A stretch of 64,000 nucleotides of DNA, taken from the IMG/VR virus record IMGVR_UViG_3300026290_000001. The stretch is one strand, 5' to 3'. Below are positions 7,348 to 61,347 of this stretch, in pieces. Below the pieces are notes generated by a model, which ran no database searches, was not told the origin of the DNA, and saw only the letters and a program-made list of their open reading frames with translations. This DNA is from a virus. Each line of letters begins with the position of its first letter. Within the stretch, counting starts at the first letter, position 1. Both the position numbers and the translations under genes were made by a program.

Positions 7348-7349
7348 AT

Positions 7350-7802
7350 ATGGAAATTCTTATTAAAGGTATTTTTCATGAACGCACAGAAGATGCTCCT
7401 TTTATTGGGGCATTAATCTGTGCAAATAATTGTAAATTTAATTGCCCTAATTGCTATAATAAAGAATTAAAATTTTCACCTAGTTATTATATAAATGATA
7501 ATGAAATAATTCAAGAGGTAAAATCCAATCTATTTAATAAAGGTATTATTCTTGCAGGATTAGAATGGACTTTACAAGCAGAAGAAATGTTTAGGTTAAT
7601 TGAATTAGCATTAAATAATCAATTAGAAATTATTTTGTATACTGGAATGGATTATGATGTATTAATTAAAAAGTTTCCTGAGTTATTGAATTATCATATT
7701 TATATAAAAACAGGCAAGTATATAAAGGAATTATCAACAGATGATAATATTCAATTTGGAGTTAAATTAGCAAGTTCAAATCAAAAAATATATAAAATAT
7801 AG
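7350..7802 (+). CDS. nrdG: anaerobic RNR activating protein (radical SAM-like)
   Basis: Cys cluster CANNCKFNCPNC near N-terminus; directly downstream of nrdD. Confidence 0.6.
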   Translation: MEILIKGIFHERTEDAPFIGALICANNCKFNCPNCYNKELKFSPSYYINDNEIIQEVKSNLFNKGIILAGLEWTLQAEEMFRLIELALNNQLEIILYTGMDYDVLIKKFPELLNYHIYIKTGKYIKELSTDDNIQFGVKLASSNQKIYKI

Positions 7803-7987
7803 AAAGGAGGGAAATAACCATACCACAATTCATTCTCTGTAAAAAAACAACTTGTCCTAACCCGAACATGAAAATCATCCTTACAATGATTTTATAAATT
7901 TATGTGATGATAATGATGAGTATAGATATTTTGTGAAGATTCGTGAAACTGACAAAGTGATTAAATTAGATGTAAATAAAAAAGAAG

Positions 7988-8431
7988 ATGAGGAGAAAAT
8001 TGATGAATATTAAAATTAAATACTTTAATGACCAACTAGAAAAAATACAAAAAATATCTCAAGGAGATTGGATTGATTTACGTTCATCTATTAATTGTGA
8101 ATTAAAACAAGGAGAATTTAAATTAATACCACTAGGTGTTGCTATGGAATTACCAAAAAATCATGAAGCACATATTGTTCCTAGGTCAAGTACTTATAAA
8201 AATTTTGGAATTATTCAAACTAATCATAAAGGCGTAGTTGACGAATCTTATTCGGGCAATAACGATCAGTGGTTTATGCCTGTTATTGCCTTTAGAGATA
8301 CAAAGATAAATATGAATGACAGAATATGTCAATTCAGGATTGTAGAAAAAATGCCAGAAGTTAATTTTATTGAAGTTGAAGAATTAGGTAATAAAGATAG
8401 GGGAGGGCATGGAAGTACAGGTATTCAATAA
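7988..8431 (+). CDS. dut: dUTP diphosphatase (dUTPase)
   Basis: dUTPase motifs PRSS and [10 protein letters not shown]-terminal Gly-rich RGGHGSTG. Confidence 0.7.
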
Positions 8432-11398: not shown

Positions 11399-11734
11399 GA
11401 TTTAGTTAAATTTAGTTATAGGACAATCATAGGTGTTCATAAGTTTATATGGGAAAATGGTGAACCATATAGACCAAATTATTTAAGTGATTTATTTAAA
11501 AAGACAGTTACTGATAATAATTTACCACCAATAAGACTGCATGATTTAAGACATACATTCGCAAGTGTAGCAAATGAATTAGGAGTTGGATTATATGATA
11601 TTAGCAAAGCATTAGGTCATAGTCAAATAGGTACTACTAGCGAAATATACACACATATGTTTGATAAGACCCATAAGAAAACCATTAGTAAAGTTGCCGA
11701 TGCCTTTAAAGAAACAGAAAAAAATAAGGAATGA
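11399..11734 (+). pseudogene. tyrosine recombinase/integrase C-terminal fragment (no start codon, about 110 codons)
   Basis: Open frame after a TAA stop encodes ...IRLHDLRHTFASVANELG...LGHSQIGTTSEIYTHMF (H-x-x-R box and catalytic Tyr region) but lacks the N-terminal 2/3 and any ATG start. Confidence 0.6.
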
Positions 11735-11790: not shown

Positions 11791-11812
11791 AAATCCCAAT
11801 ATATAGGCATTT
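11791..11812 (+). repeat. recombination-site-like core, copy A (aaatcccaatatataggcattt)
   Basis: Imperfect palindrome (aaatccc / 8-9 bp AT spacer / ggcattt); 20 of 22 nt identical to copy B, same orientation. Confidence 0.5.
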
Positions 11813-11856
11813 GTTTTTCTGAAAATCATGATAAAAACCTTATTTGGTTCAAATTA

Positions 11857-14375: not shown

Positions 14376-14397
14376 GAATCCCAATATATAGGGATTT
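14376..14397 (+). repeat. recombination-site-like core, copy B (gaatcccaatatatagggattt)
   Basis: Imperfect palindrome about 60 bp downstream of the XerD-like recombinase stop; direct repeat of copy A. Confidence 0.5.
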
Positions 14398-14456
14398 CTA
14401 AACCCGAAAATTTGAACCAAATTAAAGATTTGTTATGATACAAAATAAAAACATAA

Positions 14457-15461
14457 TTATTGATAGAAATATTGAGTATAACTTTGTTGCTTGTGTTCAA
14501 ACGTTTGTTTTGCGTAAATGCCCGTAGTTTGAATATCATCATGACCTAAAAGTTCTTGTAATACCGACATTGGACAACCGTTATTTAGCATCAAGGTTGC
14601 GAAAGTATGTCTGAGCATATGGGGATGAGTTCTCTTGTCAAGCCCTGCACGTTTACCTATTGCTGCTATTTCTCGTTGAATACCTCGATTGCTTAATCTT
14701 CTATATTCCTGCCGTTCTGTTACAAATAATGCTTCACAGTCATCCTTACGACTTTCAAGATATTTTTTAAGGTAAATTGCAGCTCTAGCAGAATAGAATA
14801 CAATTCGCTCTTTGTTTCCTTTGCCTAATACCTTAATCGTCCGATTTGATTGTCCTATATCATCTTTATTTAGTGCCGATATTTCAGATAATCGACAACC
14901 TGTTGAATACATAATTTCAGTTAATGCTTTTTCTCGCAAAGTGAAACAACTTTCACGGAATAGTTCCAATTCTTCAATTGTTAATGCCTTTGCCATTGCT
15001 TTTCCCACTTTATAAGGTTTAATTCTAATCATCGGATTTTCTTCAATAATCTGTTCCTCACAAAGCCATTCAAAGAAACTGCGAAGTACTGAGCGAATTG
15101 TCTCAACAGTACTTTTAGCATTTACTGTTGGGTCGCTTTCCCGATCATCCAGATAGTTAATTATGTCCTGCTTGGTTATTTCATTTACTGGTTTTTCTTC
15201 GGTTCTATCGGTAAATATTTTAAGATGAAGTCGATAATTATCAATAGTTATTGGACTTAATCCTTGCCGTTTTTTATCCTTCAAAAACAGTTTTATGTTT
15301 TTCCGCAAATTATAATATTCTGGATCGCTGTTTTGTTTTATAACTCTGTATTCATCAAGAATGGAGGCTAATTGATTTTTAGCCTCCATCTTATTCATGC
15401 CTTTTTCTATGATTCCATCTACAATTTTAGCATATAGCTCATAATTGAGATTAGGGTGCAT
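14457..15461 (-). CDS. XerC/XerD-like tyrosine site-specific recombinase
   Basis: RLSE (box I Arg), GKGNKER, HMLRHTFAT (H-x-x-R), LGHDDIQTTGIYA (catalytic Tyr). Confidence 0.8.
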   Translation of the reverse strand: MHPNLNYELYAKIVDGIIEKGMNKMEAKNQLASILDEYRVIKQNSDPEYYNLRKNIKLFLKDKKRQGLSPITIDNYRLHLKIFTDRTEEKPVNEITKQDIINYLDDRESDPTVNAKSTVETIRSVLRSFFEWLCEEQIIEENPMIRIKPYKVGKAMAKALTIEELELFRESCFTLREKALTEIMYSTGCRLSEISALNKDDIGQSNRTIKVLGKGNKERIVFYSARAAIYLKKYLESRKDDCEALFVTERQEYRRLSNRGIQREIAAIGKRAGLDKRTHPHMLRHTFATLMLNNGCPMSVLQELLGHDDIQTTGIYAKQTFEHKQQSYTQYFYQ

Positions 15462-22448: not shown

Positions 22449-23741
22449 TCAGTCATGAGATGAATTGGCTCTGTTCTGTTCATATATAATCCATGATTTT
22501 CTTGCATTAATTCTTTGCATGTTAGATATTTTCGGTGTCTTCATACCTCTGGGTGCATTACTAAAATCTATTTTTTCACCATCTATACCCATAAGAATGG
22601 CATAACCCGTAGACATTCTACCTTTAATAAAATATTCATTACCTATATACCTTACTTTATCAAACTTCCTAAATCCTTCTATTTTACCTGTAGGTATCTT
22701 CTGATGACTTCTTACTCCTTTTGCCTGTTGGTAATCGCCTTTAGGGATACACTTTTTTAATACAGCTTTTTCAGTTTTAAAGCTTACATCAATTAACCCT
22801 ATATCTTCAATATTATTTAAACAGGCAATAGCTACAGCATCGTAGTAATGCTCTTTTGGTAATCCCATTAGCTGTCTATGTTCTTTGGTAATAAATCCAA
22901 AGGTTTCTTTTGCATTTGGTAGCTGTCTTAATAATTGTTGTCTTATACTATTCATCTGTGTTGTGTGTTTTAATTGTCCTTTAATTTTACCATTCTTCTT
23001 TAATTTAATTCCTCCTTTGTGCAAACTATTATGACAAGTTTTACAAAGTGTAATTAAATTTTCTGCATCATCTGAGCCACCATTTTTTCTAAAAACTATA
23101 TGATGTACCTCTAATCTGCTGTCTTTACTTTTTCCTTTGCAATACTGGCAAATATATTTATCTCTACTTAATACATAAGCTTTAGTATTAGCAAATCCAT
23201 AATTAGTTCCTTTTTGATAAAGCCATTTATTACTTAATACTGCTGGATTTTTTAAAGCATGTGGGTCAAATGTTGCTGTTTCTATTATTATATTTGTAAT
23301 GGGCATTATTGATTTTGCAAAATCAATTTCTTTTAAGTGTGAATTAATTTTACTTGTCATTGTAGGAGAAAATCTATCTTTTTTAATGCTGTTTTTCCTA
23401 TTATTAAATCTAGGTTCCCTATATCTAGTTTTCCTATTCCTTCTAGTTCTCCTATATTTAGCTCTTTTGTCCATTTTGTCAGATATATCATTTCTAATTT
23501 CTACTTCTGATATATAATACACTTCATTTTCGTCATTTGCTACTGCACTTCCTATTTTACTACTACCAGTATCAATTCCTAAAGTTAAATCTTGTGTATA
23601 GTCTGTAGCATGATATAGTAATTTAATTGTAAATGGAGTTCTTCTTATGCATTTTGCTTTACCATCTTTTAACAATAATCTTGCTATTGCTGGTTTACAA
23701 GGCATTAAAGGACTCCCATCTTCATTAATTACATAAACCAT
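22449..23741 (-). CDS. iscB: IscB-type RNA-guided nuclease (OMEGA system effector; PLMP + split RuvC + HNH)
   Basis: N-terminal PLMP motif (GSPLMPCKPAIARLLLKDGKA), RuvC-I LGIDTGSSKIG, Arg-rich bridge RRTRRNRKTRYREPR, RuvC-II IIIETATFD, HNH CQYCKGK...EVHHIVFRKNGGSDDAENLITLCKTCH, RuvC-III HYYDAVAIA. Confidence 0.75.
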   Translation of the reverse strand: MVYVINEDGSPLMPCKPAIARLLLKDGKAKCIRRTPFTIKLLYHATDYTQDLTLGIDTGSSKIGSAVANDENEVYYISEVEIRNDISDKMDKRAKYRRTRRNRKTRYREPRFNNRKNSIKKDRFSPTMTSKINSHLKEIDFAKSIMPITNIIIETATFDPHALKNPAVLSNKWLYQKGTNYGFANTKAYVLSRDKYICQYCKGKSKDSRLEVHHIVFRKNGGSDDAENLITLCKTCHNSLHKGGIKLKKNGKIKGQLKHTTQMNSIRQQLLRQLPNAKETFGFITKEHRQLMGLPKEHYYDAVAIACLNNIEDIGLIDVSFKTEKAVLKKCIPKGDYQQAKGVRSHQKIPTGKIEGFRKFDKVRYIGNEYFIKGRMSTGYAILMGIDGEKIDFSNAPRGMKTPKISNMQRINARKSWIIYEQNRANSSHD

Positions 23742-25735: not shown

Positions 25736-26335
25736 ATGAAAGGATGTATAATAATGAAAATTAAAAACTTATCTTATCTGTTTATTGGTTTGCTAGTTGG
25801 GTGTTTATTTCCCATTCAATCTTTATTTGCCGAACAACCTATTACATTAATTATCAATGGTAAAACAATTACTAATGCTTCACCACAAATAGTTTCAGAT
25901 AGAACGTATGTACCTTTGAGGGTAATATCCGAAGAATTAGGTGCAACAGTTGAATGGGACGGAGTAAATAGGGTAGTTAGGGTTAATAGTGGGGATGGAC
26001 AAAAAATTGAAAAGATTAATCAAAATCAAACTCAAAACAATAATGATAATAGTAATGTGGAGAGCAACCCTAGAGATAATATCAATTATATTAGTAGTGA
26101 TGATATGGAAAAATATTACGAAAGAGATACAAATAAAGGTTTTGTAAAAAATCGTTGGGTAGATGGTAAATATTTTATTGACTATGATAGAAAAATTACA
26201 CGTTTTGAAGATTATGAATATTATTATGATAGAGAAAGAGATATATTTTATTGGGCAGATTATAAGGCAATTTTAATCTTTGGAGAAACAATAAAAGATT
26301 ATCCTAAATATAAATTTAACCAAATACAGCAGTAG
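25736..26335 (+). CDS. secreted lipoprotein with copper-amine-oxidase-N-terminal-like domain (moron)
   Basis: Signal peptide with lipobox LLVGC; domain ITLIINGKTITNASPQIVSDRTYVPLRVISEELGATVEWDGVNRVVRV; opposite strand to the surrounding late genes. Confidence 0.5.
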   Translation: MKGCIIMKIKNLSYLFIGLLVGCLFPIQSLFAEQPITLIINGKTITNASPQIVSDRTYVPLRVISEELGATVEWDGVNRVVRVNSGDGQKIEKINQNQTQNNNDNSNVESNPRDNINYISSDDMEKYYERDTNKGFVKNRWVDGKYFIDYDRKITRFEDYEYYYDRERDIFYWADYKAILIFGETIKDYPKYKFNQIQQ

Positions 26336-30030: not shown

Positions 30031-33000
30031 CTATTTACCAAGTTTACTCATTCCATTATTTATCCGTTTAAAGAAACCATCAACACCTTTTTCTGTGTTT
30101 TCTACTTTATCTATATGAACATTCATATTATAAGTTACGTTACCTCCACCAGCAAACTGTAATTGTGGAGTTGCATTGGCAATTAATTTTTGCATATTAG
30201 GAATTAGATATCTTTCAATATTTTTTGGTGGAATTAAAATTTCATTTGTTAGTGCTTTGATTATATGTTCATTGGCACTGGTATTGAAAAATTTATTAAA
30301 TTTATCAACAAAACCAAATGATTTATCTCCGACTATACCACCTTCATGATATATCCTAATTTGTCTTTTCTTTTCATCCCATTCTACTTGATGACCTAAT
30401 GCTTCTGCAACTTCCCTGATAGAAAGATATGTTGTTCCGTCAACATTTTTAGCTGGTTTAAATCTCTTTCCACCAATTATAATTGTCTGGTTTTGTCCAT
30501 AACCTTCCCAATCAGCAGATGCTCCTAAAAGTGATGCAAGAAGTCTAGATTGCATAATTGCTCTATTATTGACAAGTTCAAAAGAACCAGAATCCAATAC
30601 TGCCATAGGTTGTCTACCAGATGTGTTAGAACTAGGATTAGTACTTTCCAAAGAGGGAATAGACATATTCGCACTATTTGCACTTTCTAATAATGCTAAT
30701 GCCTGTTCCATTTTTGTAATTAAATTAGCACTAATACTATTACCAATAAACTCTAAATTGCCATTTACAAAAGTTTTAAATTCTGCAAAAGCTGATTTAA
30801 CTTTATCAATATTACCATTTATAATATCAGAACGAATTTGGGCAAACTTTTGTTCGTCATTAATTAAATCGTCATAGTGTTTTTCGGTTTCTCTTTTAAT
30901 TCTATCCAACCTATCTTTTTCTAAGTTAAGTTTAGTATCTTCTGCTTTTTTCTTTGCATCAATATCTTTTTTATAAGCATCTAATTGGTCTTTAAGATTT
31001 TCTTTACGTAAATCAATTGAATGGTCATGTTGATATTCATTAATTTCATCCTCTTGTTCTGCCAATTGTTTTATTAATTCTGCTTTTTTTGCTTTTGCTT
31101 CAAAAGAATCATCTAATGATAAAACGTCAATATTTTTTTGAGTTTCTAATATTGCTTTTTGTTTCTTTTCCAATTCACGATTATAATCATGCTCATTTTC
31201 TTCTCTATCTAGTGCTTTGATTCGTGCATTGATGTAATCTTCAAATTGTTTTAATTCATCATCAAGATTATCAGTTGCTTGTTTATGACGTTTTTCTTCT
31301 GCTTTCATTTGTTCATCTATGGCATCTAATGCAACTTGTTTTTGTTTTTCATAGATATTTTTATAGATAGAGATGATTTCGTCTGCTATGGATGCTAGTT
31401 GTTGTTTGATAGAGAATTGGAGATTGATATATTCTTGCTTTAGTTGTTTTAAAGTATTTATCAATTCTTGTTTTTGGTCAGCATTGTATCTATCACTTGC
31501 TAATTCCTGTTGAACTAATGCTATTTTATTTCTTAAAATATTAACACTTTCAATATTAATTTGATTTTCTCGTTCTAATAATGCAATATATTCAGCAGAC
31601 CCTTTTTCTAATAAAGACATTTCATTTCTAAGGTTTTCTTTTTCTTGAGTTAAATCAGATAGTTTAATATCTTCAATTGATAAATTAATTTTAAATTCAG
31701 CAAAACTCAAATCTCTTATTTCATCATCTATACCTTGAATTTCTTTTTTAAGACCTTCTGCACTATCTTTGAGTTTTTTAAAATCTTCAATCGCTTTTGC
31801 AATTTTTTCATTCTTTATATCAACTTCAATTGTATCTGTTGAACCAGACATTATTTTGTTAAAGTCAGATTCAGACAACCCTTTTCCAATATAAGACCGT
31901 AGATTCTGTTCTGCTTGTTTTAGACTTGAATCAAAAGTGTTATTTATATCTAAAAGCAGGTTTTGTTTTTTTTGTAATAAAAGTATCATTTGGTCATATA
32001 TTTCTGTTTTTTGTTCAAAAGAAGTTACATCGTCAAGTTGATCTTTAAAAGTTTCTATTTCTCTGTTAATTGCTTCGAGTGCTTCTTTCCAAACTTCAAA
32101 GGTTTTGGTAAAGGATTTGGAGGATTTAGAGGAAGAACCATATCTATCTAAAGAACTAGATACATTAAGATTTTTAAACTTAGATGCCATATCTCTAGTG
32201 GCTTTTTGAAATTCAGCATAATCTTTAAGCATCTGGTTTGTTTTAGAATCAACAGCTAAAGCACTACCGCTTTCAATACGTCTAAAATCACCCATACTCG
32301 AAGGATTTACTAATAGCGTACCTGCATTAAAAGCATCAAAATATTTCGCCCATTCAGAACCTAATTTGCTTATTAATTGCAATTCAATTGCTTCTCTTGC
32401 TTGAGCTAAATTTGCCCATTGAGTTACATTATTGCCATATAATTTTGATAAATGATTAAATAATTCAGCATGGTTATTTTTAACACTGTTATAGAAATTA
32501 ATATCTTGTTCTTTAGTTTTTATAAAGGCATCATAAATTGCATTTTGGTAATCTTCTGTGTCTTTGACAAGTTGTTGTCTTAATTTGGACTCATCTTCAA
32601 GTAGAGGAATATAATCTTGATAATCAGATATTATTTTTTCTATTGAAGATTGAGTAAGACCTTTGTCAGATAATTCATCAAGAAAACCTTTTAGGTCTTT
32701 TATTTTAGATACATTGTCTTTGTAAGTGGTTTGAAAATCGGAGAGAGCTTTTTCATATTGATTTAAAGTATTAATCGCATTTTTTGAATCAATAGTAGAA
32801 GGATATAGTGATGCAAAATTAATAGCAAATTCTTTTAAATCGGGATTACCTTTAGTTAATGTATTAATTAAATTAGTTATTTCCTTAGATGTTTTTGATA
32901 ATCCATCTCTATTTTTCTTAGAATCATCGCCACTATTAATAGCAGAAGTTAATTTATTATATTGTTCAATTAAAGAATCTAAATCAGAATTAGCAACTTT

Positions 33001-36000
33001 AGTAGCAAAATCACTTAATGCTTGTTGTTGAGTTTCTATATCTTCGGGTTGTAAAGCAAGTGATTTAGCAAATTCGGAAACAACTAATTTGGCAGAATCA
33101 GACATTTCCTTACCATTAGATTCTAAAGTTTTAATGGTTTCTTGCGCTTCGTATTCTAAATATTTTTGTTTGTTTTTAGAAAGATTATATATTTCTTCTT
33201 GTTGTCTTTGATATATATCTTTCCAATCTTCTAATTTTCTGAGGTTATACCATTCAGTTCCTTTATTATTATCAATCATTAATTGATATTCTTCTATACG
33301 TTTTTCTGCGGTGTCTCTGAGGTTAATTGCTTTTTTAATTTCTTTATTAGTTTGTTTATCTGATGCTTTAACTTTAAATTCTAATAATTCCTGTTCTTTT
33401 TTTAATTCTTCATCTAAAGCCAAAATTCTTAGTTTAATTACTTCTATAGAATCAGAATAAGCTTCTCCTTCAAGATTAATACCAGTAGCAGATACACCAT
33501 ATTTATCAACAAGTTCTTTTTGAATTTCTAATAATCGTTTCTTTTCTTCGGTAGTTGCGGTAAGATTTTTCTCTTTATCTTTAAGAGTTTCATATTCAGA
33601 AGTTAATTCTTTTAACCCCTCTTTTTGTTGTTTTAAATTTTGTATTTGATTTTGACTTGTTTCTATTTGTTTTTGTTGTTCTTCTCTATGTTTTTTAGTA
33701 GCATTAGTGAGTCCATAAATAGCAACCATTGCAGTTGTTGCAACAACTGCCAATAATCCTAATGGATTTGTTGCCATCGTTGCTTTTAAAAAATTCATTG
33801 CAGCAGTAAGTCCTTGTGTTGTTGTCAATAATGCTAAAAGGGAAATATTGGCAGCATTAGTAGTAGTAATGAATGCGATCATTGCTTTTATACTAGAAGT
33901 AATAGCAGTTCCTTTCCAAATTAAAAAAGCCGTAGTTAAAAGTGCTACAACAACTTCTGCATTTCCAAGAACTTCAACTAAAGTTGTCATAGCAATTACA
34001 AAACCTTTAATTACGTCAGAATTTAATGCTTCTTGCCATTTCCCCATTACTGTGTTTTTGAATTGTGCAGATTTTGCCTCAATTGATTCCATATACTTTT
34101 CGTTTTCAATTAAAGCAGAATTTGTCGAATTTAAGGCAGTAGTTAGAGAGTCCTGCATATCCTTGTAATTAGTCATCATAGCCATTACTATGTTTCCTTG
34201 TCTTTTTCCTGCGACAAGTTCCGACATATTAGCCCTCTGTACGTCTGTAAGTTTTTCCCAAACTAAGGCTAATTCTAACATAATGTCATAGGTGGATTTA
34301 AAGGTATTTTCATCTTTGCGAATTTGAATACCAATATTTTTAAATGATTCTTCAAGTTTAGGAAGATATTCTAAAACATCTTCACCATCTTCGGATACAC
34401 CTCTAAGTCTCATTGAAATTGTTTTGAGGGCTGTTCCTACGGTTGCTGGGTCTTGTACCACTGCGTTAGCAGCAGTTATCAATGCAACTGCTTCTTCCAT
34501 TGTATTGCCAGCAGAATATAATGAAGCAGCAGATCTACGCATAGCTTCACCAATACCTGCACTTGAAATTGCAAAATTATTTCCAACTTCATTATAAATA
34601 TCTACAATTTTCTGTATATTTCTACCTTCTTCATCTACTGCAACACCAAAACCTTTTACTGCTGAAATAATTGCTAGACTAGCTTCTTCTACTCCAATAT
34701 CACCTACATTAGAATATAATAATGCTTGTTTTGCTAATTGAGCAGATTGTTCAAGGGAATAACCCAAACGGGCAAACTCTGTCGTACTATTAATAACTTC
34801 CACACTAGTTTTTGCCAAATTTCGACCTATAGCATTTGCCTCAAGTGAAAATTTATTTAATGTTTCTCTAGTTTCGTCAGTAACTTTATTCAAATTTGTG
34901 AGAGCAGTATCTATGTCGATGATACTTTGAATACCATTTTTTACTGCTGTTATTGTTTTGATTATTACATCACCGATGAGCAACCAACTAGCGAATTTCT
35001 TGCCCGCTTCAAGTAAACTTTGTCCAAAAAGTCCAGTATATTTATTAGCATCTTGAATTTCTTTCTTATAAATACTTGTGGTAGTAGAAATTTCTCTAAG
35101 TTTAGAATTGGCTTCTGCCATATTCTTACTGAAATTTTTATTAGTTGGATCAAAACCACGTATTTGAGATTCAAGAGTATTTAAAGCACTTAAATTATCA
35201 CCAACAATAAACTTTCCATCTACACCTCTCATGCCCCTGATTCTATTTAATAAATCTTGTTGAGCAAGAGATTGTTTATGTATTTCACTTGTTAACTTTT
35301 GCTGTTGAATAATATCTTTATCAATATTTTTTGCTTTTATTGTACCAACATTCCGTAATGTTTGTTCTCTAATTTTTTCAAGTTGAATTAATTTTTCAGC
35401 TTCTATTCCTTCTATTTTGGTTTTTTCACCAATGTCAATTTTTCTTCTAATAATATTATTATATTGACCTTGATGATAGGTTATTTGTTTAGTTAATTCT
35501 TTTGCCTGTTCTGTATCTTTATTTCCTAAACTATGATAATCTTGTCTTAATTTATTTAATTGTGTTAAATGCTGTTTGGCTTCATTAAAATTTTTATTTT
35601 GTGTATTTTTAATAGTTTCTAAATTAGTTTTTTCAAGATTATCATAATAATCTGCCATTTTAACCAGTTCATCTGGTTTCTTTGTCATATCACCTACAGT
35701 TTCTTTAACTCTCTGTGACCAATATTTGGACTGTTCTTTATTTAATTTTTCTAACTCTGTACGTTGTTTTTTATAATTAATAGTAGTTTCTGTTACTTTT
35801 TTATATACTTCGTCTGTTCCTGCTTTTAAATGTTCAATTTGTTTTACACTCTCACCATTTGCTTTTGTCCACTCTTTAGTTCTTTCAGTAATTTTTGCTT
35901 CAGCATTTTCAATTTGTACATATTTTTCTTTATACTTGTCTAAACCCTTACTATCAACATCAATTTTTATTTTAGGATTAACTCGTTGTTCAATATCTTT

Positions 36001-36075
36001 TTTTACTTTATTTAGTTCTGATTCTGATGCTCTATCTAATAACGTTTTTATTCGGATTACAATATCATCTGCCAC
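30031..36075 (-). CDS. tail tape measure protein
   Basis: 2014 aa, extensive coiled-coil, central hydrophobic block, position between tail genes and baseplate; C-terminus carries a copper-amine-oxidase-N-terminal-like segment (YLSIREVAEALGHQVEWDEKKRQIRI). Confidence 0.8.
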   Translation of the reverse strand: MADDIVIRIKTLLDRASESELNKVKKDIEQRVNPKIKIDVDSKGLDKYKEKYVQIENAEAKITERTKEWTKANGESVKQIEHLKAGTDEVYKKVTETTINYKKQRTELEKLNKEQSKYWSQRVKETVGDMTKKPDELVKMADYYDNLEKTNLETIKNTQNKNFNEAKQHLTQLNKLRQDYHSLGNKDTEQAKELTKQITYHQGQYNNIIRRKIDIGEKTKIEGIEAEKLIQLEKIREQTLRNVGTIKAKNIDKDIIQQQKLTSEIHKQSLAQQDLLNRIRGMRGVDGKFIVGDNLSALNTLESQIRGFDPTNKNFSKNMAEANSKLREISTTTSIYKKEIQDANKYTGLFGQSLLEAGKKFASWLLIGDVIIKTITAVKNGIQSIIDIDTALTNLNKVTDETRETLNKFSLEANAIGRNLAKTSVEVINSTTEFARLGYSLEQSAQLAKQALLYSNVGDIGVEEASLAIISAVKGFGVAVDEEGRNIQKIVDIYNEVGNNFAISSAGIGEAMRRSAASLYSAGNTMEEAVALITAANAVVQDPATVGTALKTISMRLRGVSEDGEDVLEYLPKLEESFKNIGIQIRKDENTFKSTYDIMLELALVWEKLTDVQRANMSELVAGKRQGNIVMAMMTNYKDMQDSLTTALNSTNSALIENEKYMESIEAKSAQFKNTVMGKWQEALNSDVIKGFVIAMTTLVEVLGNAEVVVALLTTAFLIWKGTAITSSIKAMIAFITTTNAANISLLALLTTTQGLTAAMNFLKATMATNPLGLLAVVATTAMVAIYGLTNATKKHREEQQKQIETSQNQIQNLKQQKEGLKELTSEYETLKDKEKNLTATTEEKKRLLEIQKELVDKYGVSATGINLEGEAYSDSIEVIKLRILALDEELKKEQELLEFKVKASDKQTNKEIKKAINLRDTAEKRIEEYQLMIDNNKGTEWYNLRKLEDWKDIYQRQQEEIYNLSKNKQKYLEYEAQETIKTLESNGKEMSDSAKLVVSEFAKSLALQPEDIETQQQALSDFATKVANSDLDSLIEQYNKLTSAINSGDDSKKNRDGLSKTSKEITNLINTLTKGNPDLKEFAINFASLYPSTIDSKNAINTLNQYEKALSDFQTTYKDNVSKIKDLKGFLDELSDKGLTQSSIEKIISDYQDYIPLLEDESKLRQQLVKDTEDYQNAIYDAFIKTKEQDINFYNSVKNNHAELFNHLSKLYGNNVTQWANLAQAREAIELQLISKLGSEWAKYFDAFNAGTLLVNPSSMGDFRRIESGSALAVDSKTNQMLKDYAEFQKATRDMASKFKNLNVSSSLDRYGSSSKSSKSFTKTFEVWKEALEAINREIETFKDQLDDVTSFEQKTEIYDQMILLLQKKQNLLLDINNTFDSSLKQAEQNLRSYIGKGLSESDFNKIMSGSTDTIEVDIKNEKIAKAIEDFKKLKDSAEGLKKEIQGIDDEIRDLSFAEFKINLSIEDIKLSDLTQEKENLRNEMSLLEKGSAEYIALLERENQINIESVNILRNKIALVQQELASDRYNADQKQELINTLKQLKQEYINLQFSIKQQLASIADEIISIYKNIYEKQKQVALDAIDEQMKAEEKRHKQATDNLDDELKQFEDYINARIKALDREENEHDYNRELEKKQKAILETQKNIDVLSLDDSFEAKAKKAELIKQLAEQEDEINEYQHDHSIDLRKENLKDQLDAYKKDIDAKKKAEDTKLNLEKDRLDRIKRETEKHYDDLINDEQKFAQIRSDIINGNIDKVKSAFAEFKTFVNGNLEFIGNSISANLITKMEQALALLESANSANMSIPSLESTNPSSNTSGRQPMAVLDSGSFELVNNRAIMQSRLLASLLGASADWEGYGQNQTIIIGGKRFKPAKNVDGTTYLSIREVAEALGHQVEWDEKKRQIRIYHEGGIVGDKSFGFVDKFNKFFNTSANEHIIKALTNEILIPPKNIERYLIPNMQKLIANATPQLQFAGGGNVTYNMNVHIDKVENTEKGVDGFFKRINNGMSKLGK

Positions 36076-36189
36076 ATATATCCACTCCTTTCTTTACAAA
36101 TTTAAAAATAGGCAACAAAAAAGAAGTGGATATAATAATCTCACTTCTAAAAATTCAAACTATTAAAATTATTAAATTTTAAATTATAT

Positions 36190-36435
36190 CTAAGTAATCA
36201 TTCCATGAAACAATCCACCAACCTTAACTTTTCTACCATCTTTCAATTTAATATACACAATCTTACAGCACATTCTATATCGCAACATACTCTGAGCATA
36301 TGATCTAGGTGGAGGTGGAGCTAGATATGATTCTTTCCAATGCTTGTATTCATATTCAATAATTTCATCTTTGTATTTTTCAACTAATTGATTTAATGCT
36401 TGTTTATTAGTTTTGTCTGTAGGCATAATAATCAC
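36190..36435 (-). CDS. hypothetical protein
   Basis: RBS AAGGAAGTGATTAT identical to that of the upstream recombinase gene. Confidence 0.3.
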   Translation of the reverse strand: MIIMPTDKTNKQALNQLVEKYKDEIIEYEYKHWKESYLAPPPPRSYAQSMLRYRMCCKIVYIKLKDGRKVKVGGLFHGMIT

Positions 36436-36507
36436 TTCCTTTTGATTGTATGATTATATTATATGCGAAAAGGGGAGTGAAAATTAAGATAAAATGAAGT
36501 TTCTATC

Positions 36508-37545
36508 TTACAAATCACTTAAAGATTTATTTTCTACTTGTTTAATCCCATCTTCATCAAAATACTTACCTAATTCCTCATCTATCTCAGTGTCATTATA
36601 TAATGACACCATATTCGTACTCTCCCAGCCAACTACATCTTTAATTACATCTGCTGGAATATTTGCTTGGCAAAGTGCGGTTGTAAAATAATGTCTATTT
36701 GAATGCCAATACCAATCTATACCTAAAATATTAGAAAAAGTTATTGCCCAAGAATTTAATAAAGATATAGTGCCTGGTTTCCATACACTATTTCTTTTAT
36801 TCCAAAATAACTCTTCCCCTTCAATGCCTAATTCTTCACGTTGCTTCATCCATAAATCAAAATAAGGTTTAAATTTAGAAACCAAGATATACCTATAAAT
36901 CATTTTACCCTTAGAACTTCTACCCTTTGTTTTTATCTTTTCAGGAGTTTTATATAAAGCACCGTATTTAATATTTTCTTCTGTAAAATGACTTACTTTA
37001 AACCTTAATAATTCTGCCTTTCTTGATCCACTACTTACTGCCAATGCAACTGCACATGCTTGTTGATATTTGCCTTTTTCAACTAAATAATTAAGCAATT
37101 CGTCAACTTGTTCATCTGCAAGGACAGTTTTATCCCTAACATTTACTTTTACTGGTGCAGGGATTTTATTAACTATATTGCGAAAATTAGGGTGAATGTC
37201 ATCTAGCATTGCCTCTATATAATTAGACATACTACTAATTGCTGACTTCAATCTTCTTACTCTATTAGGACTAAGATTTTGTGTATTCACAAGCCAATTC
37301 TGATATTTTAAAATATCACGTTTAGTAAAATCTATAAAAAATTTATTATCATTATATTGTAAATTCCATACCCAACAAATTTCAATATCATTTTCATAAC
37401 CTTTTATAGTGGCATGAGACATATCTTTCCCTCTGCAATAATCTAAAAATTCATTAAGTAAATCTTTATTTTCTTTTGAAACTCGTTTCCACAATTCAGG
37501 AGTTACAATTGTATGTTGTTCGGTTTTCCTTGCGATTATAATCAC
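36508..37545 (-). CDS. tyrosine recombinase / phage integrase family protein
   Basis: SGSRKAELLRFK (box I Arg), WHSNRHYFTT (H-x-x-R), GWESTNMVSLYND (Tyr). Confidence 0.7.
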   Translation of the reverse strand: MIIIARKTEQHTIVTPELWKRVSKENKDLLNEFLDYCRGKDMSHATIKGYENDIEICWVWNLQYNDNKFFIDFTKRDILKYQNWLVNTQNLSPNRVRRLKSAISSMSNYIEAMLDDIHPNFRNIVNKIPAPVKVNVRDKTVLADEQVDELLNYLVEKGKYQQACAVALAVSSGSRKAELLRFKVSHFTEENIKYGALYKTPEKIKTKGRSSKGKMIYRYILVSKFKPYFDLWMKQREELGIEGEELFWNKRNSVWKPGTISLLNSWAITFSNILGIDWYWHSNRHYFTTALCQANIPADVIKDVVGWESTNMVSLYNDTEIDEELGKYFDEDGIKQVENKSLSDL

Positions 37546-37607
37546 TTCCTTATGTTCTATATAATAAAATAGGGCAAGGGATAGATAAAAACATCTACCA
37601 CTTACCC

Positions 37608-38120
37608 TTACACAACATCTATACCTCTAGTTTTTAAAGCACTTTTCATCGTTTGAACATGTAACCCTTTACTTCCAATTTCTTCTCGTGTATTCTTAAT
37701 AAATGGTCTTGGTTTGCTCCAAGGATCATTCCCATATCCAAATTCTATATTATGTGCCAAACTTTCACCTAAATCAACACCACCATATCCACCATGATTG
37801 TATGCAAATGAATGATTAAAATCGGCATTATCAACAACTTCAAGTACTCCATCTTCAATTAAATGAGAATTCATTTGTCCTGTATCCCCAAGACCGAGTG
37901 AACCTTCAATAAAACCTCTACGTTTATACATAACTGGATTAGGATATTTATCATAAACATCTGTTTTTACATGATCTGAAATTTTATCTTTAACCATTTC
38001 AGACATTTCTTTTTGAAGTGAAGAATTAACTTGTTGTGTAATATACTGCTCAAGTTGTTTTAAACTACTAAAGCTTTTACCCAATTTCCTCACCTTCACT
38101 TTGATTGCCATTTGCAACAT
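37608..38120 (-). CDS. hypothetical tail protein (possible tail assembly chaperone partner)
   Basis: Overlaps the upstream ORF by 44 nt in another frame, upstream of the tape measure region. Confidence 0.25.
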   Translation of the reverse strand: MLQMAIKVKVRKLGKSFSSLKQLEQYITQQVNSSLQKEMSEMVKDKISDHVKTDVYDKYPNPVMYKRRGFIEGSLGLGDTGQMNSHLIEDGVLEVVDNADFNHSFAYNHGGYGGVDLGESLAHNIEFGYGNDPWSKPRPFIKNTREEIGSKGLHVQTMKSALKTRGIDVV

Positions 38121-38715
38121 TCCACATATCCTTCAACATAGGTAATTTATCCCAATCTAATTTATTTATATCTTTTACTAAACTTTTACTGAGACTTTTT
38201 ATTTGCTTATCTGTGGGGAGTTTTTCAACCACTTTATCTAATTTACTTGCCAATATTCCCTCAATACTATTATTTAACTTTATAATCTGAGTAAGTTCAC
38301 AATCCACCAAATCCAATATAAATTCAACTTCAGTTATTGGTATTTGATTTAAAATCCTTTCTATCCCCACATTCTCACAAAGATAATCATAATCTTCAAT
38401 AAGATTTTCTGAGAACTCGATATTAGTGTAATTCACCAATAATGAAACATCACTGGTTAATTTTTTATAAAAGTAATCTATTTTGCTTAAACCATTAATT
38501 TCATCTAAGACAATACAACTATCTATAATTTTATTTACTATTAAATTTTTTTCTATAATGGATAAATACTGTTTAACTTCAAGCAGATCATCTACGAATT
38601 TACCTGCTTCAATTTGTTCTTTTATTTCTTGAACTAACATATTAAATACCTCCAATATATTTATTTTAATAATATATAAAAATCTCTGTGCGAGGCCACT
38701 CTTTGTCATAGCCAC
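38077..38715 (-). CDS. hypothetical tail protein (possible tail assembly chaperone)
   Basis: Acidic protein, overlapping pair with 37608..38120. Confidence 0.25.
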   Translation of the reverse strand: MAMTKSGLAQRFLYIIKINILEVFNMLVQEIKEQIEAGKFVDDLLEVKQYLSIIEKNLIVNKIIDSCIVLDEINGLSKIDYFYKKLTSDVSLLVNYTNIEFSENLIEDYDYLCENVGIERILNQIPITEVEFILDLVDCELTQIIKLNNSIEGILASKLDKVVEKLPTDKQIKSLSKSLVKDINKLDWDKLPMLKDMWNVANGNQSEGEEIG

Positions 38716-39112
38716 ATTTCAAAGTTAAACTTGTTAAATGTAAAGAATCATCATCAATTATTAATCCTGATTCAGCAATACCGTCTAAAATAAATTTAGG
38801 GACAGTATTGTCACAATCTTTACGGATTTTGGTTTTGAAGTAACTAACAAATGTCATTTCACACTGTTCTATTTTTTTATTTGTAAGTTTGTTTTCTTCT
38901 ACAAACCAGATTATGAAATCTTTCCATTTTTGTTTTAAATCATTCATTTGAGGACGTTTCATTATCATCCATTTATTGATAGATGGATGAGTAGGTTTAT
39001 CAATAGGAATTTTTTTACGTTTTGGATATTTAGCAAAATAATATTTATTGTATTTTTCTAAAACATTATTATCTATAATTAGTTTTATTTCTGAAATAAT
39101 AAATTCCTCCAA
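38666..39112 (-). CDS. hypothetical protein
   Basis: ORF in tail module. Confidence 0.3.
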   Translation of the reverse strand: MEEFIISEIKLIIDNNVLEKYNKYYFAKYPKRKKIPIDKPTHPSINKWMIMKRPQMNDLKQKWKDFIIWFVEENKLTNKKIEQCEMTFVSYFKTKIRKDCDNTVPKFILDGIAESGLIIDDDSLHLTSLTLKCGYDKEWPRTEIFIYY

Positions 39113-57724: not shown

Positions 57725-58546
57725 TTAAGGATTTTCTATTACTTTAGCAGGTCTATATTTATCTTTATAATTATGCCATGCTTTTCTCTGCCATTCTAAT
57801 TGTTTTTCCCTCCAACAACTCCTACAAAATTTTCTTCTATTAGATGTTGCTTTTATTAATTTTCCACATTCATTACAATTAATAATTTTTGGATTACCAT
57901 TATACAAATCAAAGTAATATCCAATATTATCAAAGGTAGTTATTTCAAAAACTACTATTCCATTTTCCTTGATATTATTCATAAATATAAGATGAATTTT
58001 CCCCTTCATTCTAACATCAACCAATCCTAAAATCTCTAATTCATTAATTATGGCATTTATTTTATACTCATTATTAGATATTTTAGACACTTCTAATATC
58101 TCATTATATGTATTTTGATTACCACTTATATAATTATATTTTAAAACATTTCCGTATTTTAATTTATGTATTTCTTTATATATCTTCATTTCTACTAACA
58201 AAACAAACAGAATTTTTTTATAATTATACTCTATATCTAAATTATTAATGTATTCAATTTCTTCGTTTGTTATAGGAATACTATCAATAATTATTAAAGG
58301 GTTATCTTTTCTACCTCCTTTTTTGAGTGCAGTATTAATTTGTTTGAAATATAAAACATCATTGAAATTAACTATATACTTCTTGCAAAATTCATATAAT
58401 TTTTCTTTTCGTTGTTTAGGTTTTATGCCAAGTTTTTTCCAATATTTAACTAACAAAACCAATTCATAATTATGACGTTCAGTTAAAAATCCATGTTGTT
58501 CAATTTGTTTTGCATATTCTTCTTCATTGTATTTTTCTTGAATCAA
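57725..58546 (-). CDS. hypothetical protein with C-terminal zinc finger
   Basis: CNECGK...CRSC motif. Confidence 0.3.
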   Translation of the reverse strand: MIQEKYNEEEYAKQIEQHGFLTERHNYELVLLVKYWKKLGIKPKQRKEKLYEFCKKYIVNFNDVLYFKQINTALKKGGRKDNPLIIIDSIPITNEEIEYINNLDIEYNYKKILFVLLVEMKIYKEIHKLKYGNVLKYNYISGNQNTYNEILEVSKISNNEYKINAIINELEILGLVDVRMKGKIHLIFMNNIKENGIVVFEITTFDNIGYYFDLYNGNPKIINCNECGKLIKATSNRRKFCRSCWREKQLEWQRKAWHNYKDKYRPAKVIENP

Positions 58547-61347
58547 ATAATCACTTCTTCCAACTTGTACTTTTTATTCAAGTAAACAATACCCCCTTCT
58601 TTATTAGGCATGGGAAAAAATATAGATTCTTTTGTGTTTGATTTAATATTTGAAAAAATATACTTACCAAAGGAATTCCATAAAATATCTTTGTTTGAAC
58701 TTTTATATTCACAATAAAATATTTCAACTAAATAATTAGTTAATTCATATGCGTATGAACATATTTCAAACATTCTACTTTTAAAGTCATCATAAATATT
58801 ATTTACAATACGATCAGATTCTTCATCAAATTGCTCTTTGTTGGCATTTTGATTAATACCCATAGTATTCAAGTCTTTTAATTCTTTCATAAATTTTTTA
58901 TACTCATTTAATACTTTCTGATAGGTTTCTTGATTTTTAGGAATATCATTTTTCATATATAATTTATACAAATCACCTATTTTACTTGTTTTTAATTTAC
59001 TTTTAATATCAAAATCAACATTTTCAATATGTTTACACAATAAATTCATTACACTGTCACTATCAATTACTGGTAAAAATCTATAATATGCATCCACAAA
59101 AGACTGTTCTTTTTCATTACAATTTTCCTTAATTAATAGTTCATTTAATGTTAATCCAAATTTTTGCTGACTAGACAAATCGTTACTTTTGACATATTTT
59201 TTATATTTATTATAGGTATTTTTATAAAGATGAATAAAAAAATATGGATGTTTATCCAATAATATTTTATTTAAAAATTCCTTTTCTTTTTTAACTTTTT
59301 CATCATCATCTTTATAAATTTTTTGCCTTTCAATCCAAATCTTAGGAATGCCCTTAACTTTTTTACCTATTTTTGCTTTATCAATTTGAGCAGATTGAAG
59401 TTTCGTACACATTTTTAATCTATTTATCAATGTTTGATATTCCAAACTTTCTTTATTAAAAAGAGGGAGTAAGGCATAAGCACTTGTACTTTTATTTGTT
59501 ATAGAGCCTATAGTGGAACCAAAGGCGAAAAGATCAGCTTTATATAAATCTTCTTCTGTAAATACCATAGATATAGATTTAGGTGCATCATAAACCACTG
59601 GCAACTCATCTTGAAATATTGAATTTAATATTGTTTGATCAGAAGTAGTTGCAATAATATCAAAATCCCAATCACTTCCAGCCCAATTAAGAGTTTCATA
59701 ACCATGTATATTTACTATTACTCCACCATCATCACAATACTTATACCATTTATTTAATTTATCATGATTAATTAAATTTAATTTCAAATGTTCTGATTTA
59801 TAAGTAAGTGGTGCTCTCATTGAATCTACGATACAAACATTTTTTTTATTCCAATAATTACAATAATACTCTTTTTCTTTAAGCAATCCAGTAACCTTTT
59901 GCCCGCAAATATGTTGCATCATAGCATAGGGATCACTTACTAAAACCTGAAAATTTCCATCTAAAATAATTTCACCAAGACAACCTCTTTTTATGATATT
60001 GTTAGTATATTTATAAACTTTATCTCTGATATATTTATCATTTTTTAATTCATGATTAACTATCAAACTTTTTAACCAATAATTATTACTATACTTTAAA
60101 AAATATTGAATACTTTCTTGAGTTATATTTTCTCCTAATAAAAATAATAACGTATAATATATATTATCAAAATTGACCCCAGTAACCCAATCAACAAAAG
60201 GAGTACAAATCTTCTTAATATCTTTTTGGTTTAAATCCAAAGTCTGTAAAAATTGATAATTCATTTTTAATATATCATTAGGTTTTTTAGGAGAAGTTAA
60301 ACTAACACCCCATTTTAAATCATTCATCTCGCAATTATGTATATATTCTTCTAAACTACCAAACGCATTCCAAAGTTTAAATTGACTTTCCGATACAACC
60401 ACATCGATATCCCTTAAATCAACCTGTATTGGATTATTATTGTCTTTGTATATAGTATTTATTATATAATTACCATGATTTTCATTTTCACAATATTCAT
60501 CTATATCAAATACGCAGAGCATCCCTTTCAGAAAATTCTGCCTGACACAAAATTGACCAGGAATATAATCTAATCCTAATTCTTCTGCCCATTCTTTAGC
60601 TTTACTTGGTTTAATCAACCCTTGACCATCAAACCTATTAAAACTCAACTCTACTTCTTTAATTACAATATCATCATCTTTATTTTCTTCTGTTTCAGTT
60701 ACAAAATTAACATTAACTTTTTGCTTAATTTCATAATCAGGCACTACACAAAATTTAGGCGTACTTACTATTTTTGTAGATGAACCCGACAATCCTTTAT
60801 ATGCATTGTATTTAGAAGGGCATAGGGGTATATTTTTATCTCTATTATTATCTAAAATTTCATTAAGTTGATTTAAAATTTTCTCGTTGCAAAATACCAC
60901 TGTTGAAACTCTGGATTGACTGGCAGATGATGATAATCTAAAATACCGTTCAGAATTTAATAATAATCCATTTTTAAATAAATAATTATAATGTGAGTTA
61001 TGTTCCATTACTATAGTTATGTACTCAGGAATAAAAAGCATATCTAAAATATTATTTTGTAATTCTATTATTCTACTTGAGTTTTCCTTTGAATATATTT
61101 GTTTTTTTAACCTATCTCTTTCTTTATACCATTGTTCAAGTTGTATATAATTAATTTCTTTACCAGTTATTTTTCTAATACTTCTAAGAATTTGATTGTC
61201 TGATAAAGCAATTAACTCACCATTTTGTTTAGCTTGTTGTGGAGTTAATTGTATATCATACCCATATTCTTTAAGCCTAGATGATTTAAATTTCATAGTA
61301 TATAATTGTCTATTTATCAATATTTTTTGCCTCCAATAAATCTTCAT
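58543..61347 (-). CDS. large protein of unknown function (934 aa) with acidic motifs VFDIDE and SDWDFD
   Basis: Long uninterrupted ORF; no P-loop; acidic clusters could be metal-binding catalytic motifs (primase/polymerase-like), unassigned. Confidence 0.4.
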   Translation of the reverse strand: MKIYWRQKILINRQLYTMKFKSSRLKEYGYDIQLTPQQAKQNGELIALSDNQILRSIRKITGKEINYIQLEQWYKERDRLKKQIYSKENSSRIIELQNNILDMLFIPEYITIVMEHNSHYNYLFKNGLLLNSERYFRLSSSASQSRVSTVVFCNEKILNQLNEILDNNRDKNIPLCPSKYNAYKGLSGSSTKIVSTPKFCVVPDYEIKQKVNVNFVTETEENKDDDIVIKEVELSFNRFDGQGLIKPSKAKEWAEELGLDYIPGQFCVRQNFLKGMLCVFDIDEYCENENHGNYIINTIYKDNNNPIQVDLRDIDVVVSESQFKLWNAFGSLEEYIHNCEMNDLKWGVSLTSPKKPNDILKMNYQFLQTLDLNQKDIKKICTPFVDWVTGVNFDNIYYTLLFLLGENITQESIQYFLKYSNNYWLKSLIVNHELKNDKYIRDKVYKYTNNIIKRGCLGEIILDGNFQVLVSDPYAMMQHICGQKVTGLLKEKEYYCNYWNKKNVCIVDSMRAPLTYKSEHLKLNLINHDKLNKWYKYCDDGGVIVNIHGYETLNWAGSDWDFDIIATTSDQTILNSIFQDELPVVYDAPKSISMVFTEEDLYKADLFAFGSTIGSITNKSTSAYALLPLFNKESLEYQTLINRLKMCTKLQSAQIDKAKIGKKVKGIPKIWIERQKIYKDDDEKVKKEKEFLNKILLDKHPYFFIHLYKNTYNKYKKYVKSNDLSSQQKFGLTLNELLIKENCNEKEQSFVDAYYRFLPVIDSDSVMNLLCKHIENVDFDIKSKLKTSKIGDLYKLYMKNDIPKNQETYQKVLNEYKKFMKELKDLNTMGINQNANKEQFDEESDRIVNNIYDDFKSRMFEICSYAYELTNYLVEIFYCEYKSSNKDILWNSFGKYIFSNIKSNTKESIFFPMPNKEGGIVYLNKKYKLEEVII

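Follow-up and report, generated by a model that had tools for sequence, protein, structure and literature searches.

In many siphoviruses, the slot ahead of the tape measure gene encodes tail assembly chaperones. SPbeta integrates by means of SprA/SprB, and a further recombinase gene, yomM, stays internal in the prophage; a literature search for yomM found no relevant paper within the searchable library. For Tyroviruses—the Tsamsa/Thrax-like phages of Bacillus—the position of the recombinase gp50 has been called "especially curious", the same placement has been noted for phage Perkons and the 949 family, and attP has been proposed to lie directly after gp50 (PMC9703825). SPbeta-like phages integrate via serine or other recombinases—SprA or its replacements—and not via the gene in the yomM position; they combine concatemer replication with headful packaging, as does P1 (bioRxiv 10.1101/2021.11.22.469490). 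The late gene cluster of SPbeta is transcribed by YonO as one operon (PMC5467207).

The window analyzed here—the whole 64-kb stretch of DNA, 28.8% GC and contained without differences in the 99.6-kb contig IMGVR_UViG_3300009671_000358—belongs to a large siphovirus with an anaerobic Firmicute as host. Its genes include those for an anaerobic ribonucleotide reductase, helicase, amidase, portal, terminase, and a tail protein with a YOMG_N domain. A preliminary description had reported two intact tyrosine recombinases and one recombinase relic in the window, the second of the intact genes lying in the tail region and not at a prophage end. This inventory and this location hold: on the late strand, the order is tube-type virion protein, RusA-like resolvase, 212-aa protein, YomN-like protein, recombinase, 78-aa gene, and tape measure gene. 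The genes that matter for the following comparison are:

58543-61347, minus strand: YonO-type single-chain RNA polymerase of 934 aa (24% identity to SPBc2 yonO, E 7e-16; phrog_8308, 8e-166)
38666-39112, minus strand: RusA-like Holliday junction resolvase (phrog_1682, 7.9e-14; Pfam RusA in the relative L004)
37608-38120, minus strand: YomN-family tail gene of 170 aa, the upstream anchor of the conserved order (phrog_19892; Pfam YomN in the homologues of relatives)
36508-37545, minus strand: tyrosine recombinase open reading frame of 345 codons from GTG, in the SPbeta yomM position and matching Tyrovirus gp50
36190-36426, minus strand: small gene of 78 aa from ATG, present only in the nearest relatives (no family match in Pfam or PHROG)
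30031-36075, minus strand: tape measure gene of 2014 aa, the downstream anchor (PhageMin_Tail in the homologues of relatives, linked by tblastn)
14457-15461, minus strand: second intact recombinase, int2 (Pfam 3e-41; phrog_1, 1.7e-63)
about 11399-11734, plus strand: C-terminal relic of a truncated integrase

The YomN and PhageMin_Tail assignments come from the homologues in relatives and not from the window proteins; a Pfam search with the window's own proteins returned no tail family for the YomN-like or the tape measure product.

The frame at 36508-37545 encodes a two-domain tyrosine recombinase of 345 aa. Its residues 29-106 match the SAM-like core-binding domain Phage_int_SAM_4 (PF13495, 2.8e-10, 40.9 bits at a cut-off of 27) and its residues 141-319 the catalytic Phage_integrase domain (PF00589, 3.4e-14, 53.4 bits at a cut-off of 27.1); in PHROG, it falls to phrog_1 'integrase' with 1.6e-35. 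The RHR-Y motif reported in the preliminary description is present as R175, H281, R284, and Y316, and K207 and W307 complete the catalytic set. All six residues are invariant across 34 aligned sequences, i.e., the recombinase and 33 relatives. The product thereby combines the R-K-H-R-(H/W)-Y catalytic domain with the N-terminal core-binding domain of the tyrosine recombinase superfamily.

The AlphaFold model (mean pLDDT 86.9, residues 1-11 disordered) finds XerA, IntI4, XerH, and Cre as top matches in Foldseek, and also the core of lambda Int, with full-length coverage. A sequence-profile search against solved structures places XerA first (1e-15), then XerH and XerD, with Cre and IntI also among the nearest. 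No arm-domain family matched the recombinase; a lambda-type arm-binding domain is absent, since only about 25 residues precede the core-binding domain. On the curated Xer equivalog models, the scores stay far under the cut-offs: 46.8 bits versus 220 for XerA, 38.6 versus 335 for XerC, 31.5 versus 330 for XerD, and 25.2 versus 267 for XerS. Hence, by domains, fold, and curated-model scores, the protein is a simple Xer/Cre-type tyrosine recombinase and a member of no named Xer family. The gene is genuine, intact, and maintained by selection: its dN/dS against six relatives ranges from 0.07 to 0.16, which marks strong purifying selection, and the lowest value, 0.07, is found against the closest relative, L120, which likewise lacks an ATG start. 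The SPbeta and E3 clades have lysine in place of the second catalytic arginine; hence, activity may vary from clade to clade.

A tblastn search with the recombinase found homologues in 168 phage records, and a search of known phages for near-identical DNA gave no match. The matches include the gene in the SPbeta yomM position, Tyrovirus gp50, GP28 of Geobacillus phage E3, and ORF155 of WRP3, a lactococcal phage of the 949 group. In SPbeta-like Goe14, Tyrovirus MrDarsey, E3, and WRP3, the homologue directly follows a small tail or structural gene and precedes the tape measure gene. Among metagenomic relatives, 2135 proteins match with E <= 1e-5, the close ones at 57-93% identity, and the Pfam-named order in the latter reads YomX, YomW, YomV, YomU tube, RusA, YomN, recombinase, variable genes, tape measure. 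All close relatives with enough flanking sequence keep the succession of YomN-like gene, recombinase, 0-13 variable genes, and tape measure gene; for relatives above 60% identity with sufficient downstream flank, the tape measure gene follows within a few kilobases in each case.

The preliminary description had treated the position as an oddity of this one genome, a view that does not survive this comparison, as the position is conserved in SPbeta-like phages, Tyroviruses, E3, WRP3, and all close metagenomic relatives. It had also named what would speak against its view—a gene order conserved in relatives together with a canonical integrase. The conserved order is found, but the enzyme is not the canonical integrase at the end of a prophage. 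Many big phages of Firmicutes (SPbeta, Tsamsa-like Tyroviruses, lactococcal 949-type) thus share a recombinase ahead of the tape measure gene as a conserved and previously noted trait. The gene described here, a homologue lying on the late strand between the YomN-like and the tape measure gene, adds a new member, of clostridial type, to this known class of late-operon recombinases. Phages of the 949 group are virulent; hence, the role of the recombinase is not limited to lysogeny.

The YomN-like gene and the tape measure gene enclose a plasticity zone (L003, L004, L007, L031, L033, L034). Depending on the phage, it holds genes for HU-like DNA-binding proteins, endonuclease-type proteins (GIY-YIG, HNH-repeat), toxin–antitoxin systems, or immunity; Geobacillus E3 has 13 genes here and Tyroviruses have none. 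In L007, a 2.1-kb insertion falls precisely into the gap that separates the recombinase stop codon from the small gene.

More distant relatives use other junctions of the late region. Gut phages at about 54% identity carry the homologue with a metallophosphatase gene on one side and the terminase genes on the other; in SEP9, phiCDIF1296T, and pBS32, it follows the lysis genes. A homologue with 60% identity is carried by the Clostridium botulinum plasmid prophage p1BKT015925, and pBS32 carries one as well. In the gut loci L075-L112 (locus coordinates about 6900-8080), the recombinase, an upstream hairpin, and a 3' palindrome, GATGAAACTTTCATC, form a sharply bounded island of 1.15 kb. Phages that share only 74-80% identity in their terminase regions share 92-93% in this island. 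Beyond its edges, the sequences are non-homologous: immediately past the palindrome and a TTCGTCTAA unit, present in one or two copies, at least six unrelated sequences begin.

Around the recombinase gene, several elements might bear on its expression and on its target:

37571-37608, minus strand: hairpin with a 16-bp stem, then UAUUUUAUUAU, between the YomN-like stop codon and the recombinase ribosome-binding site (-21.3 kcal/mol, z -3.7)
37534-37551, minus strand: translation start region of the recombinase, with the Shine-Dalgarno sequence AAGGAAGTGA followed by ATT ATA ATC
36485-36510, minus strand: candidate recombination core site, an imperfect 10-6-10 palindrome, TAAGATAGAA-ACTTCA-TTTTATCTTA, overlapping the recombinase stop codon
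36077-36148, minus strand: leader of the tape measure gene (-26.7 kcal/mol, z -3.3)

The sole standard start codon of the recombinase is a GTG at 37543-37545, which lies inside the Shine-Dalgarno sequence itself. Codon 4, ATC at 37534-37536, aligns to the ATG that most relatives use and is ATA in L120. The ribosome-binding context is common to the recombinase and the downstream small gene, as stated in the preliminary description: the 14-nt sequence AAGGAAGTGATTAT occurs twice exactly in the window, at 37538-37551 and 36428-36441, and with one mismatch there are three matches versus 0.11 expected by chance. The hairpin at 37571-37608 is trailed by a U-tract and looks like an intrinsic terminator or insulator. 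L120 and L007 share it, and the gut-phage relatives have a comparable hairpin ahead of the recombinase gene. As the hairpin upstream is strong and the usual ATG start is missing, expression of the recombinase is probably low.

The cotranscription with structural genes proposed in the preliminary description is thus only partly borne out: the recombinase and the neighboring late genes share the strand with short gaps in between, but the hairpin and its U-tract stand after the YomN-like gene. The window also encodes a YonO homologue, and YonO transcribes the late genes in SPbeta; hence, late expression of the recombinase is a reasonable inference by analogy. This homologue (58543-61347) is located just upstream of the late genes. 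Along its full length, it shares 54.6% identity with a protein of 'Bacillus phage BUCT082', a closer match than would be expected of a Bacillus phage.

The neighborhood holds further features of its own. The small gene at 36190-36426 is preceded by a sigma-70-like promoter at 36453-36481, and the shared downstream motif CACTCCCC is better read as the -35 region of this promoter. As the small gene is confined to the nearest relatives, it would be accessory cargo and no conserved partner; a role of this 78-81-aa gene as excisionase partner was ruled out, given no family matches and its presence in nearest relatives only. The leader of the tape measure gene allows two alternatives—a terminator-like hairpin at 36117-36148, or pairing of 36117-36134 with the tape measure ribosome-binding site and GTG start (36077-36094)—and looks like an attenuator or a translational control of this gene. 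The RusA-like gene sits inside the tail block between the tube-type protein and the YomN-like gene, as it does in L004. Over 44 nt (38077-38120, minus strand), the 212-aa gene shares its sequence with the YomN-like gene, each read in a frame of its own, and similar overlaps are present in L120 and L031; the two genes may be coupled in translation or linked by a programmed frameshift of the kind known from tail assembly chaperones. Farther downstream on the minus strand, a protein with RRXRR and HNH endonuclease domains (22449-23741, Pfam 2.2e-54) lies among the tail-fibre genes and is probably a selfish insertion. Nearby, the minus-strand tail block includes a gene on the plus strand (25736-26335) whose product has the N-terminal domain of copper amine oxidases.

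The palindrome at 36485-36510 is single-copy in the 64-kb window with up to three mismatches allowed, and the second-copy search covered these 64 kb of the 99.6-kb contig. The search for target repeats that the preliminary description had recommended hence returned the 26-bp palindrome only once in the window, and the inverted repeats that might bracket tail genes were AT-rich pairs at chance level. Against shuffled sequences, the palindrome reaches p of about 0.04 and, as RNA fold, z -2.9; it is weak when taken alone and could be an RNA hairpin instead. In L120, the palindrome TAATATAGAA...TTTTATATTA carries a matching change on both arms, from G:C to T:A. Palindromes at the stop codon are found elsewhere as well, in Tyroviruses (arms of 13-15 bp in MrDarsey), in the L043 lineage (arms of 17 bp), and in the gut relatives in the form given above. 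They are not general in the family: in a shuffling test, 7 of 91 distinct downstream sequences reached p<=0.05, versus 4.6 expected. A motif ~AAAnCYTCATTTT after the stop codon, considered as a deeply conserved core, was downgraded on this test. Searched against viral contigs, the 20-bp core found the source contig and one unrelated chance match only, and the looser motif AAAYYYCATTTT occurs at chance-level frequency. As a recombination site, 36485-36510 is a lead and not a finding.

The preliminary description had asked which recombinase serves integration. The int2 product is a much stronger Xer/integrase match than the tail-operon enzyme, and its gene lies between tail-fibre and lysis genes, near the junction with the early genes. 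The two enzymes are distant kin only (19% identity over 115 residues), on which grounds paralogy within the window was rejected; a tblastn search of the window for a further recombinase copy found none. On gut contigs of 274-645 kb, phage genes stand on both sides of the homologue—metallophosphatase upstream, terminase downstream—and neither there nor in SPbeta-like phages is the gene placed at a prophage end with host DNA after the site. Taken together, the int2 match, the integration of SPbeta-like phages by other recombinases, and the flanks on the gut contigs make integration unlikely for the tail-operon enzyme; int2 is the more likely one to serve it.

The int2 gene and the relic face each other across a 2.5-kb lysis cassette. 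A common 31-nt element, ATCAT-N12-ATTTGGTTCAAATT, follows both in the same relative orientation (11825-11855 and 14409-14439), with its 14-mer exact in both copies; with one mismatch, this 14-mer has three matches in the window versus 0.3 expected. Also, AATCCCAATATATAGG is present in both regions (11792-11855 and 14377-14439). This arrangement may represent a lysis module that can be inverted or exchanged, or it may be left over from the replacement of an integrase module.

How do these observations bear on the role of the tail-operon enzyme? In many elements, the attachment site adjoins the integrase gene, and a phage integrase with the palindrome as attP would correspond to this layout; integration would then interrupt the tail operon and separate the recombinase from the tape measure gene. 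The attP proposed directly after gp50 (PMC9703825) points the same way, and exchangeable integration modules look like the gut island, in which gene and palindrome are far more similar (92-93%) than the terminase regions (74-80%). Nevertheless, we consider this role rather unlikely. The recombinase has no arm-binding domain and no excisionase-like partner conserved beside it, yomM stays internal in SPbeta-like prophages that integrate by other recombinases, phage genes flank the site on both sides on the gut contigs, the family is present in virulent phages, and int2 at the lysis/early junction is the better candidate. The gut island is also what would be expected of a self-contained mobile cassette of recombinase, upstream hairpin, and 3' palindrome that moves among late-operon junctions and seeds hot spots of accessory genes in a selfish or integron-like manner. 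Three junction types are occupied (YomN-like/tape measure, metallophosphatase/terminase, after lysis genes), the island is sharp-edged with non-homologous flanks and at least six different sequences after the palindrome and TTCGTCTAA, 0-13 variable genes accumulate before the tape measure gene in relatives, and the 2.1-kb insertion of L007 falls exactly into the gap between recombinase stop codon and small gene. On the contrary, no repeated attC-like sites flank the cargo and a search of the stretches from recombinase to tape measure gene in the window, L004, E3, and Goe14 brought up no convincing families of repeated sites, and no second palindrome copy lies within 7 kb on either side; cassette exchange, one of the roles listed in the preliminary description, loses its footing with the missing repeats. 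Much of the cargo is of the homing-endonuclease type (GIY-YIG, HNH repeat) and able to insert unaided, a conserved island in a tail context is expected anyway because tail genes evolve fast, and the position is stable over deep divergence, which favors vertical inheritance. Such a cassette thus appears improbable to us; if true, it would mark a phage-borne tyrosine-recombinase platform for gene capture or module shuffling, not a housekeeping resolvase.

Inversion, likewise listed in the preliminary description, would make the enzyme a shufflon/Rci-like invertase that flips a segment to switch tail or accessory genes in expression or variant. Tail genes are nearby and some relatives carry an opposite-strand gene between recombinase and tape measure gene, but the single candidate site in 64 kb (at <=3 mismatches), the lack of convincing inverted repeats around any tail gene beyond chance-level AT-rich pairs, and the lack of paired sites in the relatives examined make this very unlikely. 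Equally little speaks for a protein that has left catalysis behind and acts as a DNA-binding or assembly factor, e.g., as a stand-in for the tail assembly chaperone or packaged into the virion. It does occupy the usual chaperone slot before the tape measure gene, and lysine stands for the second catalytic arginine in the clades of SPbeta and E3. Yet the six catalytic residues are invariant in the clade described here, the weak start codon and the upstream hairpin point to a low-copy enzyme, and the record of WRP3 labels the neighbor 'structural protein' but not the recombinase; such a function is thus hardly to be expected. A considerable minority of the probability is shared by functions other than the readings listed here.

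The reading we favor—tentatively, with a probability of about 0.35—is that of a late-expressed, low-copy Cre/dif-like resolvase that acts on replicated phage DNA and is an inherited core gene of the SPbeta/Tyrovirus-type late region. The recombinase would be transcribed with the late genes by the phage's YonO-type RNA polymerase, and the upstream hairpin and the weak start codon would hold its level low. A dimer might then bind a single palindromic core site at the gene's own 3' end, for which 36485-36510 is the candidate, and recombine two copies of this site on one replicated molecule. Dimers and concatemer-derived or terminally redundant molecules would thereby be converted to unit circles, like by Cre at loxP or by Xer at dif, possibly together with the RusA-like junction resolvase encoded upstream. 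This resolvase reading is favored because the fold is simple, there is one site only, the phage group replicates as concatemers and packages by headful, a RusA-like resolvase is encoded nearby, homologues are found on plasmid prophages, and the gene is present in virulent members of the group; int2, with a site of its own, is located at the usual lysis/early junction. By analogy, resolution of the Cre/loxP type would be compatible with the fold likeness and the lone adjacent palindrome. Dimer resolution, as dimer or multimer resolution, is also the best fit among the roles listed in the preliminary description; against it stand the palindrome, which is not family-wide, and the late expression, which fits plasmid-dimer resolution during lysogeny poorly.

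For this window, the feature is genuine yet typical of its phage group, and the result is mostly a clarifying one. More generally, a catalytically intact recombinase has long been kept in the tail operon of widespread large phages—SPbeta, anthrax phages, dairy phages, and relatives of the C. botulinum toxin plasmid-prophage. An 'integrase' before the tape measure gene should not count as evidence of a temperate lifestyle, an annotation caveat that is relevant to the screening of phages for therapy or dairy use. SPbeta yomM makes for a tractable system in which to study the function of the recombinase, and the comparative data supply a candidate site.

Compared with known systems, the recombinase finds its best sequence and fold matches in XerA, XerH, and XerS, and in such Xer systems a homodimer acts on one palindromic site with a 6-bp center; unlike these, it scores far under the family cut-offs, is phage-borne in a late operon, and has no dif or FtsK context. 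With Cre/loxP of phage P1, it shares the character of a lone simple recombinase, the two-domain fold (Foldseek TM about 0.55), and a proposed site adjoining the gene, and concatemers are packaged by headful in this phage type as in P1. The identity to Cre is only about 15%, though, cre lies outside structural operons, and loxP is 13-8-13 versus the imperfect 10-6-10 candidate here. SPbeta yomM (e.g., xerC_1 of Goe14) occupies the same slot in the order yomX...yomN, recombinase, variable genes, tape measure; in addition, homologues of the YOMG_N, YomN, and YonO types are common to the window and SPbeta. Here, the identity is only about 26%, and the SPbeta clade differs in the lysine at the second catalytic arginine. 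Tyrovirus gp50 differs in that the host here is a low-GC anaerobe, the arm sequence of the palindrome is another one, and a small accessory gene intervenes before the tape measure gene. Like the recombinase described here, it is Xer-like, sits between a neck/tail-completion gene and the tape measure gene (PMC9703825), is 28-31% identical over about 90% of the protein, has a palindrome shortly past its stop codon, and comes from genomes with several tyrosine recombinases each.
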